From Microthyrium microscopicum (lineage: Eukaryota): a stretch of 64,000 nucleotides of DNA. Below the pieces are notes generated by a model that saw only the letters and a list, made by a program, of their open reading frames with translations, made no database searches and had not been told where the DNA came from. How positions within the stretch are numbered: the first letter of the stretch is position 1; every line of letters starts with the position of its first letter. The stretch spans positions 806,001 through 870,000 of the forward strand of contig MU004239.1 in assembly GCA_010405405.1 (NCBI GenBank), written 5' to 3'. Of the stretch, positions 34,301 to 48,699 are shown in pieces. A program made the translations under genes and the position numbers.

Positions 34301-37080
34301 CTCCGTGGTTCTAGCGTACAACCAGGTCAACCTACCCCCGTTGCTCGACACCAGGAACCTGGAACGGGACTAGGCTCGGAATGAATGAAAGGTGTACGGG
34401 GGGCAGGAAAGAGAAAGAAAGGGACGTGCTGTCGTTGGACTGAAGGTAATTTCGAGAAAGTGGTCCTGGACTCGCTCAGTCCTGAGTCGAGCGTCTAGCG
34501 TTTCAGGGGATGATGAGTTCACCGGCTGTCAAAGGAGCCGATTATTTTCATACACACTCACAGCGCTCTATTTTCAAGGTCCCACAAACACGTCGTCTCA
34601 CGCGAAGCTCCGTATCTTTGTCGTGAGAGAAGCAGAGGCCCAGCCAAATGGATGGATTGACGATTTGTATCATCGGTACCAAGATCTCCACATGCTGAAG
34701 GTATTACCCAGCAGGTTTTGGCAATTGGGTCGCCGCCCTTTTGGTTATGGAAATGTTCAGCTGCACTTGCTGGCCTTGCAGACTGCAGTATTGTCGTTGG
34801 GTTGATGGTCAGGGGGGCGATTGAATCTGTGTTGCGGTGTCGCCTCCAACTGCTTGTCTTTCTGATCTCTGAATTGTGAGCAGGACATGTCAGCTCGATG
34901 CGGGATTTGTTGGACACCAGACAAAAAGAAAATAAATCTCAGGCTCTTTGACCTTTCAGTGCTTGAGGGGGCCGGAGACTGACAATCACAGGGCGCTAGT
35001 GGCAGCAGCGGGAGATGTGCACCAATAATGAGTGCAAGCGCTGCGACACTCGGATCCATGGCTCTGGCCTGGTCCCCTGTTTGGTCTAACTTCAATGAAC
35101 CTCGTCCAGCCCAGTCCAAATCAAGTCCAGGTCAAAGTCCAAGTGTCCAGGTTGATGCCGTTGATGTACACTTTCCAGCACGAAGTTGCTCTGTTTTGCT
35201 GACTTTCAAGACTGGCTCTTCGATACCTCTGGTCTTGGACCAATCGCTCGTCGGATGGCCGCCGGACTAGCCAGGCTGATGTGCTCCATGGGTTGATGGG
35301 CACTGGGATATCGCATGCTTTGATCTTATCCTGGCCCTCCCTTTTTTTATGATTCCCCAGGCTCTTCGCGTCAACGAGCAGGGAGGGGGAACATTACGGC
35401 GGCCAAGAGGGAAATCTTTCAGTCAGCTCGCAGGCCTTTGCAGCAAGACGATTCAATGAAGGATCATCCGAGATTCCCATGGACTCCAATCTTGTCCACC
35501 GCTTTATGCGCTAAGCAGAATTTGCGGTATTGTTTCCCCCCACTCTGCTGCTTTGAATTAGTAAAGGTGAAGAGCAGGAGCGCAGAGAATGTTTCGACTT
35601 GTGCTTGGATAAATTTCCCAGAAACAGATCACAGACGGTTTTCAGAGTCGTCAAAGCTTTTCAGCGTGCTGGTTTGGTTGAGAATTGACAGCCTTGCACC
35701 TTGATAAGTTGATATTCACGCAAAAGGCCGTGCATCTAAACATCTGCTCGATCTTGGTCAACAATTGCTTCCTTCTCCTCTATCTCTCACTTCATTCTGC
35801 TTCTGTGGTTGTCGAGTTTCGTTCGTTGCTTCTTTGCCTGCCTGCTCCATCCATTTGCTCAGTCCCCTTAATGCTCAGTGCTGCCGTTGCCCAACTTGAG
35901 AATCGTCATCCATCACCGTTCTGCTCTTCGCCAGTCATCGTGCTAGCTTTCAAGAGAGCACATCCCCGTAATCAGTAGTTCCACACACCCTGGACATCTC
36001 GAACCTGCAGCCTGTGCCAAAGGTGGTCCCCGGTTTGCCTAGTCGATCTGGATCCTCCTTAAGGAGCTTTGATCGCTCTCTCGCGCCAGCCGAAAAGCCA
36101 CGCGCCCCTTTAAAGCACGCCTCGCTGTACTCCCCTACATAACTCTAAGCGTTATCCTGCTGGCCGCAGACAAAGAAGAAGTCTCCTTTCAGCCTCCGTT
36201 TCCGCCTCCCGCCACTAGGCAGAGTCACTTTCAGATCGCCCAAAACTCCACATCCTCCTCGCTTCAAGTGTTGCTTTCTCTCCAAACTGCTACACCACCA
36301 CGAGACCGTCTCAACGTCGTTCCTTATTCATTCGTTCTTTTAGGGTGCTGTGTCAACTGTTCTACAGTTCATCAGTCACGTCCATTCGTTTTCCTTGTCT
36401 CGAGTTTAATCCAGCTGGTTCGACGAACCCCGATTCTACACACAACTTCCAGGATAGGATTCAGAAAACGGCTTCGTCTCAGAAACATTCACCTCTCGAC
36501 AGTTCCACGCCTTCCAAATACCACTTCTTGCACAGCTTGTCATACCGAAACGGTTACACAACATTTTGATCGAGCCCAAATACCTGGTCGCGACTGTTGT
36601 AGTACTAATCCCGAGCACCGCGAAGCTTTGTAATACTCACTGGACATTGGTACCTGGTTTCTTGAACTTGGTACGGATAGGCAACCCGAGTACTATTTCG
36701 GAGCAGAATACATAGCGCCTGAACTCACGCGCTACTGATTTGTACGTTCCCATTGAATCAGTGTACAGGATTCTTTCACACCAGTGAAGAACTCAAGACT
36801 ATCGACTTTGTTAGCAGACCCCTTCTGACACATCCTTTCTTTTAGGGCATTAACTTGATCCGATCAGCGTATAAGTTCCGTTTGAAAAAAGAACTAGCTA
36901 TCCAGCTTGGCTTGTTCGAACATCACAAGTGCACTAACGTCACTGAAGACTAGCGAATCTTCAGTCGAACGTTTCTCACCACCAATTCTTTCTTTTACGG
37001 CCACCCGGCCTACTCACATAAAAACCGTCATCGTGGCTGCCGCAGTTGCTCACCCGGCCCATATACACTCTGGGTCGGAC

Positions 37081-38409
37081 ATGGGCGGTCCAGGCTTTGC
37101 ATCAAGAAGGCCAAACGCCTCGAGCCTTCCCACTTTTGAACTTCCACAACCACACTCTGGACAATCAAAATACCAGTACACAATATCTGCCAGTCAAGGT
37201 TCACAAACACCAGGAAGTTTGGCGAGCGTTGGAAATCTACTCACACCACCAAGCACTATTGGAGGTGAGGTGTCTCCTTCCCCAACTAGCAATGTCAACA
37301 CCACCTCTGGGCCTCCGCCACCTCTATATTCAAATGGCGGTTACTCATCATGGTCACCATCCCCGTCACAACATAACCATCAGCAAGCCTACTACACGCA
37401 TTCTGGACAAAATCAACAATTCCAACATTCCCGTGTTCCCTATTCTCCAGCAAATACAAACGTGCGGGTACGTCCTCACTCTCCTCAATCGACAGAAGGC
37501 GCACCAATGCAGTCACACTACGATCATCAAATTTTCTCATCTGGACCAATGACACCAGCGTCAATGACAACAATGGCTCCGCATTCCCAAGCGCCATCGC
37601 ACCACCATATGCAACAAGCCATTATGAGCTCTGCGTCTGTGTCCAGTGCCGGTAGCAATCCCTCGCCAGTGCATGCCCAAGAAGCTTTCCGTCCACCACC
37701 AACTCCTACATATTACTCCCAACAATCCACACCACAGCACTCACCATTCCCTTTCAGCACTGGACCAGGGCAACCTCAAATGACATTGAGCAGCACTGGA
37801 CCAATGGTGAACCGACCGCATATGTCTCCCGCCACAACAGGACCTATGCCATCACTTCCAGCACCAGCTGTCCAATCGCCAGCAGCCATGCAAGGACGAT
37901 TCGCTTCGTATGGCCCTGTTATGTCAAACATCCACAACCCCAATGGTCAGCCAATGCTCGTTGGTGCGCTTCCCCATGGAATGGTAGCAAATTTCAACAG
38001 CGGACACGCTGCGAATATGCAAACCATGTATGGTCCACCAACTCCACAGTCGCAGCCTCAGAACGACAGGCCATTCAAATGTGATCAGTGTCCTCAGAGC
38101 TTCAACCGCAACCATGACTTGAAGCGCCACAAGCGCATTCATCTGGCTGTGAAGCCATTCCCCTGCGGGTACTGTGAAAAGAGCTTCTCGAGAAAAGATG
38201 CCCTCAAGGTAAATACCACCAACACTCCCTCCCATTGAACATGACTAACCCGCTCCCAGCGCCACATGCTTGTGAAAGGATGCGGCAACAAGGCCGCCGC
38301 TGCCGAAGGGGCCGCTTCGAAAGACAGCGCCTCCGTCGAAGCATCTTCGCCCGACACAAAGACTGCCGCGCCCAGCGAGAGCGACGACGCCAAACCACAG
38401 TCGTCGTAG
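37081..38409 (+). CDS. C2H2 zinc-finger transcription factor (two C-terminal fingers, P/S/Q-rich N-terminus), ~425 aa
   Basis: RPFKCDQCPQSFNRNHDLKRHKRIH and KPFPCGYCEKSFSRKDALK/RHMLVKGC, joined across intron 38209-38259. Confidence 0.92.
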
Positions 38410-40600: not shown

Positions 40601-42153
40601 TTAGTTGCTCAGACGTGATAGGCCAACCATCTGCAGCCGAACACTCTTTCATGCAGGCGGAAGGCAAGGTCTTTTCGTCTGCGGCTTTTGTGGGCGCTCT
40701 TCATTCTTCCCCTATACGCATCATCCAACGCGTCCCGTGCTCACTTCAACCATCAGGACTAGACCCATGTGCTGACCGAGAAATCATCTAGGGGCATTGA
40801 GATGCGTTGATGGCTCGTTGTTGGCCACAAAATGGCTGTGACTGCATCTCAGCGATGGCAGCATGGTGTTTGAGGCCGGTAGCAGGCAGTGTTTCAAGAA
40901 GGAAGAGCTTGGAAAAGGTCTAGCAGAGGCACAGAACGAGACGGGATGATCATTGAGAAGAATGAGATGATGATGGGGGCTGAATTCTATCTGATGGGAA
41001 GTGGAAAGTGTCAAGAAAGCGATTCTGTTTGCTTGAGGCCGGAGCAGCAGTTGTGGAATGTAAGCAGTTCTGGACCGAGGGCACCACACTAATGACATTC
41101 CAGGCTAGAGTCTATTTACAAAAAAGTTTTGGAAGACGCGTTCCCAAACGGTCGTCGAAAAAAACACAGGACCAGTCGATGATATCTCCAATGAATTGCT
41201 TCTGTTGGACCATTCCACGATACCGACCATGGGACGAGACGGATATGACCAGATATATCAGATATCGCCTGTCTCTGGACCTTAAGTCGCCTCAGGCCCC
41301 AACCGATACCTCGATATCAAAGATCAAAGCTTCCAAGGTTGTTTGTGGGGGAGAACCGGGCCGTGACTGCCTCCTTTTAGTCTAACACAGACCAAATCAC
41401 AGCAGTCACTGCCTTTTCTTCGACTCGCCACCAACACCTTCCACCTCCCACCACCGACACCTTCAAATCCCAAAAATCGAGGCACGAATTTTATTATTGC
41501 CTTGGTAAGAACAACTCCAAATTTGCTGGTTATTATCTCCGAATTTGCGACGAGTCCTTCCAAGGTGGCAGTGATCTGACCTCGACCATACCCACCTCAC
41601 CTCTTGTCCTCTACTTCTCTCCTTCTGTTTTGCTCTCCAATAAACTCTCTTCTTGCGTCCCGCGCTTTACTTGCTTCGTGCTTCGCTCCTTCGTCTTCTC
41701 CCTGCTGTCCTCGTTGATCCCTCGTTGTTCATCGGGATCCCCATTAGATCTCGGATCTAGGTCCTGCTAGCAAATCTTCTGGATTTTGCGCCTGGCCCAT
41801 TGTCCCATTTTGGGCTATCCCAGTATCAACAAGACACATTGCCATTCATCAGCAGCCTCATTTGCATCTGCTATTGCTCCCAAGCTACCATATGTACGCC
41901 GAATCGCCGTGGTCGACGAGACACGCCCAGCTGACCGCCGAATTATAGGGACCATTAGCACTGTTTTCGTAATCAGTAGCCTCACCCCGGCGTATTCTCC
42001 GGCATTGGGAATTTTCGGTACTCTGGGAATTTGTTAGGCGATCGCTCACGACTCATTCAACTTTCTCTCGCTTTTACTCTTAAGCACTCGCTTGATTATA
42101 TCAGCTTGTTATTGCGAAAACCCATCGTCTACCATTCGACACCACCATTGATC

Positions 42154-45100
42154 ATGGTCAATTTCGCCCAAGCCGCGGCTAATGCCTTGCGGAAGCGGTT
42201 ACCCTTGGCCGATGTAACAGATCAGAATGCTGTTGCTCAGAATCGAGACAAAGCCGCGGTCCAGTCAAAGAATCAACCAGCTCAATATAGCGCTTCAGCT
42301 AATGCAGCATCATCTTCTCAAGCATCGACACCTGCCACTCGACCCGAGACTGCTCGCGGCCTAGTTCGACAGAGCTCCTTGAATGCGTATTCATTTTCGG
42401 GACAATCCCAAGATCAGCACAGCATTAATTCACCACATCCCGTCAAGACGCGTATCGGCGACTGGACTTTGGGTGCTAGCATTAGTTCTGGCGGTACCTG
42501 CACAGTCAAGAATGTTCGCAATGTCTACACCGGACAAGATGCAGTAGCAAAGATTGTGAACAAGAAAACTGCGGAGCAGGTTCGCGCAAAAAGCCTGGCC
42601 AATTTGGCTATTCGTTTGAAGGAAGTGGGTGACATCCTATATCCATCAGATGTTGACTTGCCGATTGGTATTGAGCGAGAAGTTACCATCATGCGCGTTG
42701 TTGAGCACCCGAACATTGTTAAGCTCTATGATGTTTGGGAAAACCAAGATGAAATGTAAGTCCAGTGAATATATTGCAGAGCTGGTGCTAACAAGATTCA
42801 GCTATGTCATTATGGAAAAGATCAAAGGCTGGGAGCTGTTTCATTTTCTCCAGAACAATCCACGCCTTTCCGAACAGCTGGTGGTGTATATATTTCGCCA
42901 GATCATTGAGGGAATGCTCTACTGTCACCGGATGCAGATTTTCCATCGTGATCTGAAGCCGGAGAACATCATGATTGACTTCAACCACCAAGTCAAAGTC
43001 ATTGATTTTGGCATGGCTGCATATCAACCAAATGGCGAGATGCTGAAGACACCCTGTGGCAGCCCACACTACGCTGCGCCTGAGCTCCTTGATGGCTTTT
43101 TGTATGACGGTGAGAAAGCTGATGTTTGGAGTTTGACGGTCATTCTCTATGTTATGCTGGGAGAACGCAATGATCCTCCGTTCAACTACGTCCATATGCC
43201 TGGTTGGACCGATCTTGACAGACTCAAGTACTTGTACAGCAAAATCAAGGAATGTCGCCCGACGATACCCAATGATTGGAGCCGCGAAGCCAAACATCTA
43301 TTGAGTCGAGGATTCGTCCGGGACCCTGCTCAGCGAATAACTCTCACTGAACTGTGGCATCATCCCCTTATGCACAAGTATGATGTGACGCTTGGTCTGC
43401 AGCTTAAGCCACATATGAATGACTGGATTGGCGATTCCCCGACTATCCTGAACTGGGTTTTGCTTACTCGGGACTCAATTGATCGCAAGATACTTCGTCA
43501 TTTGATGATGCTTTGGCACGATCATCCTGAAAGCTTCATCATTCGAAAACTCCTCGACGGTCAGCTGAACCAAGAGAAGTACTTCTACGCTGCACTGAAG
43601 ATAGATTATGACCAGCAAGATGAGAGACGTGTGAAGAACCAAGAGCAGGCCCACAAGCCAGGACAACGTCTTGCTATAGCTTCCAGAAACGATTTGCACC
43701 ATGGTGGGCTACGTCCTGCTGAGCGCCCACCAGCATTACCTCTATGTCATCTACCAGTACCACTCAGTCAGCAGTGGACTCCTCCTCCAGGTCCTGTAGA
43801 GCTGGGTATTTCTGCAGAGAAATGGGAGTCATTTACGCGAAGAAAGGATCCAACTTACCAGCGTCCGGCACATCTCATGCCATCGACTGAAGTCCCCAAC
43901 GAAGGTCCAGCATATGTGCTTAACGGAGTTACCGACGTCCCACCACATCTATTGGCCGCTCCCAGTGCAAGTTCAAATGAGAAGTCAGTGGTTGATAAGG
44001 GCAAGGCGAAGGCTACTTCAAAGTCTCACCGTCGCTCCAAATCGCAGTTGTCCATATTCGGTGATGAGCATCTCACATCATCTTACAATCTGGTGCTGGA
44101 GTCCGGATCTCAGAATCCTCATGACCCAAATCGAGCTTCCCGTGAACCTACACATCCAGGTACCCATTCTTCCAGCGTTACTGCTCGTGGTGAGAGCTCT
44201 AAGAAGAATACCGGATCAGTCAACCATCCGTTATCCGCGCGCCTTGAAGCTATCAAACGTCAACCAGTCTTGCGCCCAATCTCCATGTCAAAGAGCATAT
44301 CCTTGAGTCAGCTGTCCATTGATAGTAGAGTATCCGTGTCGTCGCGACGCTCACAATTGGGTAACCGCTCGCAAATCCTTCTGGTCATGAAAAAGCCCAG
44401 TGAGCGTCACAAGAAGAATGTCAGCTTCGATCATAAGCGACGTGCTTCTGCACACTTGCTGCCTCGGTTCGCGGGTTTTGATTCTTCTACTCCAGAATTG
44501 TCGAGCGATGTTTGGGATGGTGATATTCCTTCTAGTCCTCCGATGATCTCAACGCCCGATGGAGTCGACGTCAGTTCTTTCACAAATAGGACAATCCGAA
44601 CCAAGACTATTGATATGGTGGCTCGTAAAGCCAGCAGTGAGCTTGAAAAGTTCTGTGATGATGCATTCTTCCGTTCATCTCTTAGCGATGATTCTCCTCA
44701 CTCTTCTGGCTTGGGTGTTACGAATTTCGATGGTAAGAACCTGCTGGCTTCAGTATCTACACGGTCTTCCAAAGAGCGAAAATTTGACAAAGCAATCCTG
44801 GATCGTCCGTTACCTCCAACTCCTCGTGGTAGAGAGGATTCGAGAATGACGACCGACACCATGGAGACTCCAAATGCGTACACAACTCGAACACTTGAAG
44901 AGACACGCAACCGTCTGTCAACCAAGTATGAGCGACACGGCGTAAATTCTGATGACCATTATAACGAGATTATTCGGCAGCTGGACAACCTCATTCCAAC
45001 ACAATCGTCTAAGCGACCACTGTTCCGTGCTGGGTCCGAGTTTTTGCAATCAATTGATGACTTGAACCCAATGGCCGCAATTCCAGAAGAAGAGCGTCTG

Positions 45101-46701
45101 GCAGACCTTGGCACAGTTCCTTCCTCCTCTGAGCGACTCCCACGTCAGAAAGCTCCCGTTGTTGGGCCTGAGGCCACTTTCCAAAACCAGCGGGGCGACC
45201 ACCGTAGTCACGCACACACAAATACAATTCGAGTTGTCGAGCCCTCCTCTCCTTTGCCTCCCAGCATCCCACCACTGAACATTAGAAAATCCAGTGGTGC
45301 ATCATCATCAACATCGACTGTTACGAGAAAGAAGTCTCGTCCGAGTAAGTTTTACCTCCTCTTTCTTCTGGTGTTATTTGTTTTTGTTTAAACGCGCTTT
45401 TTGCAAAGTTGAGGGTCACTGACGTGGTTGTTGCGATAGACAAGAAGACTTCACAGCAGATTAGTTCACGGGGATTTCATCGCGTTCCAGTCATGTGTAC
45501 GGCGGACGCCCCAAAGATGCTGAGACCTACTCTCATGGCAAATGGTCAATTGCCTCCTCCACCGCCAGGCCCACTGGTGACCCACAACCTCCCCGAGGGC
45601 CAGTGGGTGGCTGGACGAGGAACTCGCTTGGACGACCGAACGGAAAGCCGCGATCGTCGCAATAGAGCACAGGCTGATGAGCCTGGAATCGTGGCGAAGA
45701 TGATGAGCACATTGACTCGAAAACCTCGACCTCGTTTGGTAGTAGATGGTAAGTCTTAATCATCAAATTTCTTGTGTTTCTTACTTACCTTTATCCCAGC
45801 TCCAGGCCTCGGTGATGTTCACAATCGAAACAAACCCGAATTCATGGTCATGAAGATCGATCCGCCGAAGTTCCAAGCCAAGGAGAAGAACTTCTTTGAG
45901 TTTTTATTTGGTCGTGGTACTGTGCGAATTCCTATCTCTCGCATCGTCGCCATGAAACACGCACGTGATGTGAGCAAAGCTGCGATTCAAGACTATCTGA
46001 TCGTCAGCTCCGATGACTATGGCGATTATCGCCAAGACCCGCAGAAACCTGGTGTTTTCGGGGCAAGTCTTATGTCAGGAAACCGTAAGTACTCAAGTTT
46101 CTAACCAGAAGCATTGAAGCTAACATGCGAACTAGAATTCCGCCTTGCGCCAATGTCGTTCGTAATCGAGCTCTTCCAGATGATGGAGGGCGAACCACAA
46201 ACAGCCATTCCACTGACTGTGGTTCGTATCACTCTAACCAGCACTATCGACACGGGTTCCTTCGATGATCTGCAGACCCTTTGTGCTGCTATCGTGTCTA
46301 TCATGGAGTCTCGCGGTGTGAGCTTCGATTTTTCGAGCCGAAAAGCCAAAAAGGCGATTCGAGATGTCCAGGGCCAGACCAAGAAACGCCTTGAAACCCA
46401 GGCTATCTTTGTCGAGCGAAACCAGCCGGTCACTGAGGAGCTGTATGCTGACGATTCAGAGCGTCGTCGTGTTGAGGCTCGTCGCCTCAAAGCGGTTGAG
46501 GATGCTGTTGCTCTAGAGCGAAAATCTCGCCAAAACAGCCCAGCGGACACAATAGTTCGCCAGGAATGTCCAATCACCAAACATGGGTTTGAAGTCGACG
46601 CAGAGTGGACCACGGCCGGCGCTCAGCGTTCTCCGAAACCTGATTCTGCACAGCTTCAGCAGCCAAAGGAAGCCAACGAGACTCACAAAGCTAGTGGCTA
46701 G
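42154..46701 (+). CDS. Ser/Thr kinase, Nim1/Gin4/Hsl1-like (CAMKL) with KA1-like C-terminal region; ~1434 aa to the first stop
   Basis: VAKI, IEREVTIM, HPNIV, HRDLKPEN, DFG, TPCGSPHYAAPE; NQEKYFYAAL and SFVIELF segments resemble fungal Gin4 homologues. Exons 42154-42755, 42802-45344, 45440-45748, 45800-46084, 46136-46701 join in frame. Confidence 0.88.
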
Positions 46702-47952
46702 TCGCCAGTGGTTTTTCCAAGCTCTCAAAAAATCCCGCCTGTTGATTTGAAGCGTCTTCACTCCGAAGAGAAACGCACTGCATTCAAGGGCTTGACTCCT
46801 CAACAAATTCGCGATGCCCCAACACCACCATCCGCAGCGTCTCTGGGAGCGTCGTCCTTTGACGGCGCTGAGCACCAGATTGAAGCCTCGATGATTCGGT
46901 ATGCACCAGAGTATCCTGCTATGTCAGCTGAGCATGTTCATGAGGAGCTACAGCTCCCAAACCTCGCACCTCTGCGCCGTGCTCGACGCGCTAATCATCG
47001 CGGCGAGTACCGATCGCTCATGACTGGGCAGAGTGCTATTCGCAATGGCTCTTCTTCGTCCTCTCAAGGGCAACAACCATCACTGCGCTCTTCATCTTCT
47101 CGAGAACAGCTCTCCTCCCAGCGCCCCTCGCCTTCTCGAGGGCCGAACTCATCTCAGCAGTCCTCGACTCCTCGCGTTGCCTCTAATTTACGGTACATGA
47201 CTTCGACAGATGACCTGAATGAGACTCAACCTCGATGGGATGACGAGCGCCAATGCTGGATTGATCCGCGTCTAGCAAAACCATCTTCTATCCCGCACCC
47301 ATCTACTCGGCGTCAGTATCGTCGTGAATCACCACCCTCTCCTATTCCGCAGCCACCTGCTCGGACTCGAAGTGGTCGTCAATCGCCACCATCACCCCTC
47401 CCGCAGCCAGCTGCTCTGCTTTCGGGTTACCGTCAAATGACTACTCAGGCTCAGGTTTTCGGTCAATCAACTGCTTCCGCAACTGTAGGCTACGGTAATT
47501 TTCAGCGATCTCAAGGCTACGGTCCCCCCACCCCAGACTTGGGACAGTCCTATACTCAGCCTCAAGGCTACGGTGTATCGGCTGCGACTCCTCAAGGCTA
47601 CGGCAGACCCTATGTTACGCCTCAAGGCAATGACCCACAGGCTACCACGACCAATGCCTTCTCTTCCCATCGCCGCCGTCAGGCAACCACCACCGAGCCG
47701 CTTCCGCTATTCTCACAGCGGGCTGAGTCACCACTACCTAGCGCCCCGTATGTTCATCAGCCCCTCCTGGGTCGCGGTCGCCGTGACTCTGATGGGCCAG
47801 TAATTCCTAGCTGGCTTGAGGAACCCCGTGAAGTCCGACAATTCAGAGGAACCCTTGACATTGAAGCAGATGTCGCAGAAATGGAGCGGGAACGAAAGCG
47901 AGAAAGCGATGCTCGCCGCGCTGAGGATATCTGGGATTCCTACGAGTACTAA
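46702..47952 (+). CDS. In-frame 416-codon continuation of the kinase beyond a single TAG; disordered S/P/Q/R-rich tail
   Basis: Same frame as kinase exon 5 and open from the codon after TAG 46699-46701. Internal peptide repeats (QGYG x3, SPPSPxPQP x2). First ATG only at 46891. Confidence 0.65.
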   Translation, partial: SPVVFPSSQKIPPVDLKRLHSEEKRTAFKGLTPQQIRDAPTPPSAASLGASSFDGAEHQIEASMIRYAPEYPAMSAEHVHEELQLPNLAPLRRARRANHRGEYRSLMTGQSAIRNGSSSSSQGQQPSLRSSSSREQLSSQRPSPSRGPNSSQQSSTPRVASNLRYMTSTDDLNETQPRWDDERQCWIDPRLAKPSSIPHPSTRRQYRRESPPSPIPQPPARTRSGRQSPPSPLPQPAALLSGYRQMTTQAQVFGQSTASATVGYGNFQRSQGYGPPTPDLGQSYTQPQGYGVSAATPQGYGRPYVTPQGNDPQATTTNAFSSHRRRQATTTEPLPLFSQRAESPLPSAPYVHQPLLGRGRRDSDGPVIPSWLEEPREVRQFRGTLDIEADVAEMERERKRESDARRAEDIWDSYEY

Positions 47953-48699
47953 ACCACACAACTATTCTATTCAACGGCCTCTGTATCGAGCAAACTCCCG
48001 GTTTTGGAGTTCTAATTCATTCAGCCTTTACACGATGGCCTATCATCAACATCACTGCCCCCAATCACCCATTCATTCTTTCAATCAGGAGAACAACATG
48101 TATTAAGTGCGACACAACACCACTCAACAACTGAGCATCATCTTAACCCTTCCTGGACAGGCTATTGGCGGCCAAAATGTCCCATTGAATCACTCACGAC
48201 CCTGTACGATAACGACCTTTACGAGTTTTGACGACCACGTTTCCTCTTTTGGAAACTGTTCATGCCCATATTGGGTTACTCAAACCGTTTGCGTGTCTTG
48301 CTTTTTTGGGTCGGAGAACCTGCTTTTTGTACTATACCCCCCAGTTTTTTTGAGATTGTTTCAGTTTCCCTTTCCGGGGTTTAATAAGACTTTTTTAAGT
48401 CAATGCGATGGAAAGGGAACGGTTTTTCTTGTATATTAGGTAGTAGCTTTAGGTCAATATGTTTTTTCGGCTTCGATTTCCATTTCTCTACGTTGTGATT
48501 CCCTTGTAATGTCTTTTAAGGTGAGATTTTAGGTAGCCGTGGGGAGCTTGCTGGGTCGTTGTTTACGTGTCACTTTCGTGACGCGTGCTTCCATTTTGGG
48601 CCTATTTCGTTCATTTTCTATATAACTTTCTCATTTTACAGCGTTTAAGACGCAGAATCCGTATTTACCAGCAGATTGTATGGCAGCCAGCGACGTCGC

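Follow-up and report, generated by a model that had tools for sequence, protein, structure and literature searches.

A UAG codon within an RNA hairpin divides a putative GIN4/HSL1-type kinase gene of Microthyrium microscopicum from 416 further coding codons in the same frame

In Fusarium graminearum, the kinase gene FgDBF2 carries a TAG stop codon embedded in an RNA hairpin, and an adenosine-to-inosine (A-to-I) edit that abolishes this stop has been demonstrated; it adds a disordered degron extension of 24 amino acids (aa) (PMC13123824). In PUK1-type genes a premature UAG is corrected in perithecia (PMC4817773; PMC10776026). The preferences of this kind of editing, as stated in two reports, are U at position -1 in 85.7% of sites and A or G at +1 in 76%, with G at +2 and A/G at +3 and +4 as further tendencies rather than requirements; hairpin loops hold 62.4% of the edited sites, a share that is higher still for those with strong editing (PMC4817773; PMC11156358). 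According to published work (PMC11087585; PMC11156358), searches for editing in A. nidulans and B. cinerea gave none, and the interaction between Ame1 and Tad3 is presented as an innovation of the Sordariomycetes, the origin in Pezizomycetes being independent. The locus described here belongs to a different class. It lies in a 64,000-nucleotide (nt) stretch of contig MU004239.1 (the window, positions 806,001 to 870,000) from Microthyrium microscopicum (Dothideomycetes, order Microthyriales), and consists of a kinase gene, its in-frame stop codon TAG (nt 46699-46701) and a long reading frame that continues directly behind the stop. All features given below are on the + strand unless stated otherwise.

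The kinase gene (nt 42154-46701) has five coding exons (nt 42154-42755, 42802-45344, 45440-45747, 45799-46084 and 46136-46701). Joined from the ATG at nt 42154 they give 1434 codons followed by the TAG, and at both ends (20 N-terminal and 9 C-terminal residues) the product agrees with a deposited 1434-aa protein, P0004, filed under the same species. The exon joints come from the contigs of sequencing run X1, in which five GT..AG intervals are skipped (nt 41894-41948, 42756-42801, 45345-45439, 45748-45798 and 46085-46135), none of them being skipped in the DNA run X4. For this reason X1 was treated as RNA, although that label is only a guess, as no listed run is recorded as RNA. The RNA evidence thus consists of the consensus contigs of a single run whose tissue stage is unrecorded, and such contigs drop rare isoforms.

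The frame of the last kinase exon reopens at nt 46702 and runs for 416 codons to a TAA at nt 47950-47952. An earlier note on this DNA, made from the letters alone, had claimed just such a continuation, and both DNA and RNA contigs agree with it. DNA contig X4 record 9 (nt 45675-47055) shows no differences from the window. RNA contig X1 record 2 is spliced at nt 45748-45798 and 46085-46135 but unbroken over nt 46136-47055, likewise with no differences, and reaches 356 nt beyond the TAG, unspliced. A scan of the sequence around the stop returned no set of GTRNGY donor, CTRAY branch point and YAG acceptor spanning the TAG. The TAG is not an assembly error, nor is it spliced out in the main RNA form. 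Since this form carries the UAG, the standard product is the 1434-aa kinase, and a product translated across the stop would have 1434 + 1 + 416 = 1851 residues. Both lengths proposed in the earlier note are therefore correct by exon joining, and its statement that no plausible intron skips the stop holds as well. The note had suggested that the TAG be confirmed in raw genomic reads; the DNA contigs of X4 carry it, and the assembly error that it had listed as an alternative is refuted by the letter-for-letter agreement of the X4 and X1 contigs.

The sequence behind the stop has the properties of a coding region. A codon score trained on the kinase up to the point where its orthologues end gives +0.268 per codon for the tail before the TAG (nt 46378-46698), +0.281 for the 63 codons from the TAG to the first in-frame ATG (nt 46702-46890) and +0.162 for the annotated downstream open reading frame (ORF; nt 46891-47949), with -0.18 for the 3' untranslated region (UTR). 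The codon signature of the gap is equal to that of the preceding tail. The two remaining frames have negative scores in each of the three coding-like segments, with 2 to 21 stops (2 and 4 in the 63-codon gap). The score of the gap was reached by none of 50,000 shuffled sequences and by none of 4,499 stop-free shuffles, and is matched by only 0.49% of all 189-nt windows in the 64 kb. The G+C fraction (GC) is 0.53-0.58 across the stop and drops only after nt 47950. A paralogous copy of nt 46825-47055 allows a comparison by codon position: among the differences listed, 18 of 26 fall on position 3 (p = 2e-4), and 5 of 7 among those listed upstream of the ATG at nt 46891 (p = 0.045). Across the 416 codons, ~4.1% of single substitutions produce a stop, so that one is expected per ~0.02 substitutions per site, and a frame free of selection cannot stay open for long. 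The 416 codons are real coding sequence in the kinase frame, and the description of this region in the earlier note as coding-like rather than intergenic-like is borne out by codon score, shuffles and GC. Because 63 codons with kinase codon usage lie before any in-frame ATG, the results as a whole show that ribosomes pass from the kinase through the site of the TAG under some condition, or did so until recently.

What the stop cuts off can be judged from the relatives of the kinase. P0004 carries a Pkinase domain (PF00069, E = 4.6e-57, residues 110-391), and 119 other relatives were listed, with E-values from 3e-146 down, many of them named GIN4, gin4 or HSL1. The protein is probably a kinase of the GIN4/HSL1 type (CAMKL), an assignment that follows the names of the best relatives rather than reciprocal orthology. 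Of the 119 listed relatives only one, a yeast protein of 1684 aa, exceeds 1434 aa, in a search that admitted lengths up to 2510 aa. In 14 of 15 orthologues scanned, the Fungal_KA1 domain (PF16797) ends 14-22 residues from the C-terminus, all of these matches being above the cut-off. The Tothia protein, the closest named relative, has a weak partial Fungal_KA1 match and a 42-residue tail. P0004 itself has no Pfam match to Fungal_KA1 at E <= 1. A profile built from the C-termini of 95 orthologues gives its residues 1195-1281 a score of 6.7 bits, with a maximum of 1.4 bits among 200 shuffles. The alignment places the orthologue ends at about residue 1327 of P0004 (about nt 46378). A strongly diverged KA1-like region, which aligns with the KA1 of the orthologues, would thus occupy nt 45799-46377, spanning the intron at nt 46085-46135. 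It is not terminal, as 107 residues lie beyond it (nt 46378-46698, from the orthologue end to the TAG). Single-sequence folding, which is weak evidence by itself, gave a strand-strand-helix arrangement for the end of the KA1-like region and two helices for the 107-residue tail. These results suggest that KA1 is degenerate in this kinase, and that the 107 codons before the TAG, like the 416 after it, are specific to the lineage. Since only 14-22 residues follow KA1 in the orthologues, and 118 of the 119 listed relatives fall short of 1434 aa, the part severed by the stop lies outside the conserved protein and should be dispensable.

The extension is of biased composition, with S, P, Q, G, R, E, K and A making up 66% of its residues. 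Most of it (nt 46891-47952) is deposited as a separately predicted gene model of 353 aa, P0001 (100% match), which is an S/P/R/Q-rich low-complexity sequence with a terminal helix. Internal peptide repeats, already mentioned in the earlier note, were found again at nt 47483-47628 as segments encoding (P/S)QGYG, in two families: D1, a 14-nt unit present in four copies at nt 47483-47604, and D2, a 20-nt pair. When the read-through exon was folded as a single sequence (P0003), residues 134-552 showed no secondary structure and a predicted local distance difference test score (pLDDT) below 50. The only confident element of the extension is the terminal helix, which comprises its last 40 residues (residues 564-603 of P0003, nt 47827-47949), is rich in charged residues and has a block-mean pLDDT of 83-86 without an alignment. 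The C-terminal residues of the extension, ...SYEY, do not form a peroxisomal signal of the SKL type.

No relatives of the tail or extension were found outside the organism's own genome among 5.8 billion clustered proteins, 1.84 billion representatives and metagenome contigs. Among the clustered proteins, the 416-aa frame had near-length matches only to its own model and to a paralogue, and none at longer lengths. A HMMER search of the 1.84 billion representatives returned four matches, namely two proteins of the window itself, the paralogue and a bacterial cadherin-like repeat protein of 2893 aa (P0005). The last was rejected as spurious: it matches in 22 short stretches through a PSWL..F.GT motif, its E-value of 8e-26 is summed over the 22 repeats, and the likeness to IPSWLEEPREVRQFRGTLDIEADV (nt 47785-47895) is weak. 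The resemblance was judged to be probably due to chance and inflated by repetition. A protein scan of metagenome contigs matched 175 pattern stretches, of which none was confirmed, and no match was returned when metagenome contigs were searched for the hairpin pattern, any base being allowed at the A. A protein atlas gave a best score of 0.85 with low recognition and no lead, and Pfam returned no family for the tail, the extension or two antisense frames. The comparison of orthologues for a conserved TAG or TGG and downstream frame, proposed in the earlier note, could therefore be carried only as far as these searches, which found none to compare.

The reading given most weight, at a rough probability of 40%, is a young nonsense mutation or gene split. 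The locus would be one reading frame cut by a genuine UAG, and the stop a nonsense mutation of recent evolutionary date, which a single transition from CAG or TGG would have produced. The mutation would have severed a lineage-specific C-terminal extension of ~365 low-complexity residues and a 40-residue terminal helix, leaving the conserved parts of the kinase untouched. The remainder may be starting to decay, or may still be made alone from the ATG at nt 46891 or 46921, which would amount to a split of the gene; the hairpin around the stop would be a chance sequence feature. This reading is favoured because the prior for editing in Dothideomycetes is low and because what has been cut off is a dispensable orphan tail. 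The nonsense mutation, which the earlier note had ranked among the alternatives, fits at least as well as the editing that the note preferred, at the probability just given. Several points weigh against it. The youth of the stop is assumed, as searches of metagenome contigs found no second strain or sister species. A hairpin as strong as the one described below occurs at only 0.7-1.9% of the TAGs in the window, and on the mRNA strand only, which a plain mutation does not predict. The codon-position count covers a subset of the differences, 15 further rows of them lying outside it. The ATG at nt 46891 is preceded by an out-of-frame ATG at nt 46814 and has T at -3, presumably a weak start context, so there is no obvious provision for translating the remainder on its own. 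The main contest is between a young nonsense mutation or gene split and a conditional correction of the stop, which the available data do not separate.

The strongest argument for correction is the structure of the RNA around the stop. The earlier note had drawn by hand a stem of ~11 base pairs with the A of the UAG in a 5-nt loop, and RNAfold reproduces it (nt 46687-46715): 11 pairs, 7 and 4 on either side of one G/G mismatch, close the loop UAGUC, in which the A of the UAG is unpaired. A 61-nt segment has a minimum free energy (MFE) of -18 kcal/mol (z = -2.71), a value matched by 2 of 200 shuffled sequences. Pair probabilities of the helix are at least 0.99 in contexts of 61 to 301 nt. Because of G-U pairs the helix is stronger on the mRNA strand than on the antisense strand (-12.7 vs -5.6 kcal/mol). 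The hairpin was ranked against all 1556 TAG triplets of the window, both strands taken together. The A lies within a hairpin loop at 461 of these, the loop is closed by at least 11 pairs at 11 (0.7%, the TAG at nt 46699 included), and it lies in a loop with an MFE of -18 kcal/mol or lower at 29 (1.9%). The hairpin is unusual, not unique. It is estimated to favour correction about tenfold, the rank of 1-2% being set against a guessed hairpin frequency of 10-20% at strongly edited sites. An Rfam scan of nt 46400-47000 returned no match.

The hairpin overlaps a weak triple repeat of the 7-nt unit GCTAGTG (nt 46690-46711), and a local 7-nt duplication was considered as the origin of the shared frame. 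It was rejected: with one unit removed, the downstream frame enters upstream frames that are filled with stops, so the coding-like gap is not explained by such a duplication.

The editing hypothesis holds that, in fruiting bodies, an enzyme of the tRNA-deaminase type deaminates the looped A to inosine, so that the UAG is read as UGG (Trp), giving an 1851-aa kinase with a long disordered extension there and the 1434-aa form in mycelium. The site, GGC-U-A-G-UCG, has U at -1, G at +1 and G at +4, with the A in a hairpin loop; the hairpin is stable and strand-specific, and only 0.7-1.9% of the TAGs in the window lie in one as strong. Past the stop, the frame is undamaged and has a coding character from its first codon on, the RNA contig is unspliced across the stop, and there are precedents in kinase genes, PUK1 (PMC4817773) and FgDBF2 (PMC13123824). 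Against this, the site has U at +2 and C at +3 instead of the preferred G and A/G. The look for A-to-G at nt 46700 gave A in the consensus contigs of X1, which leaves room for low-level or stage-specific editing, and no RNA-only A-to-G change was seen across the 7.3 kb over which X1 RNA was compared with X4 DNA. The change spectra of the two runs over this length are nearly equal, with 10 A-to-G changes in each and a difference only in G-to-C (3 vs 4), and all of these changes stem from paralogous copies. TAGs that close long frames in the window are not enriched in loops, with the A in a hairpin loop in 5 of 15 (33%) against a background of 30%. The 416-aa orphan extension is unlike the conserved targets of premature stop codon correction (PSC) or the 24-aa tail of DBF2. 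A full-text search of the literature returned no report of A-to-I mRNA editing in Dothideomycetes, and the Ame1-Tad3 interaction is said to be a Sordariomycete feature. The remark in the earlier note that editing would be of interest if the species lay outside the lineages known to edit applies here, according to the reports (PMC11087585; PMC11156358). Of its editing proposal, the sequence prerequisites (U at -1, G at +1, the loop) are present, and positions +2 and +3 and the A of the RNA consensus speak against it. There is no direct support for the editing mechanism at this site, and it is regarded as possible but doubtful. The full proposition, that M. microscopicum edits the looped UAG to UGG in a stage-specific manner and so lengthens its GIN4 kinase from 1434 to 1851 aa by a linker with QGYG repeats and a terminal helix, would be slightly less probable again.

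An arrangement of two long-standing separate genes, the second a 353-aa orphan starting from the ATG at nt 46891 under its own promoter and sharing the kinase frame by coincidence, agrees with the deposited model P0001 and with the depth of the RNA contigs, which is 175.9 downstream and so not below the 120.7 over the last kinase exons. Nor does the continuity of the contigs count against it. X1 record 1 extends ~3.5 kb upstream of nt 41500 from the 5' region of the kinase, which indicates that transcripts of neighbouring genes merge in the assembly; X1 contigs thus cross other gene boundaries, and their continuity is no proof of one molecule. It is opposed by the spacing of only 189 nt between stop and ATG, with no dip in GC, by the strong codon structure of these 189 nt in the shared frame, and by the third codon position holding 5 of the 7 listed differences upstream of the ATG. 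In addition, the chance of staying open is p = 0.09 for the 189-nt gap and p = 0.011 for the 107-codon tail, and that of sharing the frame is 1 in 3. Since the codon signature across nt 46702-46890 precedes the ATG, a long-standing separate gene, another alternative listed in the earlier note, is unlikely.

The ATG at nt 46814, the first after the TAG, opens a frame of 26 codons that ends in a TGA overlapping the ATG at nt 46891 (ATGA). A scanning ribosome would encounter it before reaching the downstream ORF.

Readthrough of the UAG by near-cognate decoding, without editing, would produce the extended kinase as a minor share of the product, at a constant level. Some fungal proteins reportedly acquire a peroxisomal signal by programmed stop-codon readthrough, in work said to be that of Stiebler et al. 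in 2014, and the fungal cases involve UGA in a CUAG-type context and short extensions ending in a type 1 peroxisomal targeting signal (PTS1). The open, coding-like frame and an mRNA that continues to about nt 48439 are consistent with readthrough here. The sequence UAG-UCG-CCA, however, matches neither of the contexts that we take to be stimulatory (UGA-CUAG and UAG-CARYYA), the stop is inside the hairpin loop, so that there is no spaced downstream structure, and the protein would end in ...SYEY rather than in an SKL-type peroxisomal signal; readthrough is accordingly improbable. Least probable of all, to the point of being nearly negligible, is an assembly or sequencing error, for which there is no support, or a minor splice form removing the stop, which could be among the rare isoforms that contigs drop, as the X4 DNA and X1 RNA contigs are identical to the window across the stop and no canonical donor, branch and acceptor set spans it.

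The transcript has a 55-nt GT..AG intron in its 5' UTR (nt 41894-41948), the joint of which is present in X1 record 1, the interval being unspliced in X4. The 3' UTR (nt 47953-48439) was followed up to the end of the RNA contig; its codon score is negative in every frame and its GC is 0.39-0.46. X1 record 4 spans nt 47110-48439 and then runs into adapter letters, and RNA depth is ~5 beyond nt 48576. The RNA contigs are broken only at nt 45616/45675 and 47055/47110, where paralogous copies branch the assembly. The last two introns (nt 45748-45798 and 46085-46135) are each exactly 51 nt long and contain an in-frame TAA, so that retention of either would truncate the protein rather than shift its frame. 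The upstream neighbour is an open frame at nt 36898-38238 (+) with C2H2 zinc fingers.

Fragments of this locus recur at a second place in the genome in the form of a scrambled mosaic, which is annotated as a hypothetical protein of 286 aa (P0002). The pieces correspond to nt 45536-45737, 46130-46194, 46521-46627, 46825-47055 and 46992-47144 of the window. The mosaic was seen in DNA run X4 and in RNA run X1, with contig depths in X1 of 343-895 vs 120-341 for the parent gene. Its pieces are of different ages, that of nt 46825-47055 having ~83% identity and that of nt 46992-47144 near identity. The latter, a 153-nt piece, is cleanly inserted, in frame, between nt 45605 and 45606 of a copy of exon 3. 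In the mosaic, 61 other letters stand in place of the 197 nt with the TAG hairpin. Repeat-induced point mutation (RIP) was considered as a source of the stop and rejected, the 55 changes between parent and copy comprising 31 transitions and 24 transversions and the GC being undepleted. Two further runs, X6 and X7, which bear another organism label, contain short contigs identical to the locus (nt 42043-47890, the TAG included) at a depth of 2-4. They were considered as a possible relative, but such identical pieces at this depth were taken as carry-over and give no comparative information.

Should a young mutation account for the stop, the case is an ordinary one, yet the annotation is corrected by it, in that the kinase model and the 353-aa orphan model would be two halves of one frame; it would also present a GIN4 kinase with a KA1 end that underwent heavy remodelling in a single lineage. 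Should the stop be edited, sexual-stage mRNA editing would extend to a third and unexpected class of ascomycetes, which would argue against a purely Sordariomycete origin, and this one site would allow a simple test for editing in Dothideomycetes.

Compared with GIN4/HSL1 proteins of other Dothideomycetes (P0010, P0012, P0014 and P0015), the kinase has the same N-terminal kinase domain (47-51% identity over it), a comparable general layout and a KA1 region that appears to be homologously placed. Unlike these orthologues, which have a well-scoring KA1 14-22 residues from the end, it has no Pfam KA1, an additional tail of 107 residues and a further 416 codons behind the stop. With the fungal readthrough cases mentioned above, the locus would share the production of two protein lengths from one mRNA, but it lacks UGA, a CUAG context and a short extension ending in PTS1. 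It resembles PUK1 in that the long open frame of a kinase gene is interrupted by an in-frame UAG, which automatic annotation has hidden, here as two gene calls. PUK1-type stops lie inside the conserved kinase domain and are followed by sequence conserved across species, whereas the stop described here lies beyond the conserved domains and what follows is an orphan. The likeness to FgDBF2 comprises a protein kinase gene, a TAG in an RNA hairpin and an in-frame, compositionally biased and predicted disordered extension. The arrangement in FgDBF2 is reported as a Sordariomycete feature; its counterpart here is found in a Dothideomycete, is known from sequence alone, and has an extension of 416 aa that includes a confidently predicted helix.

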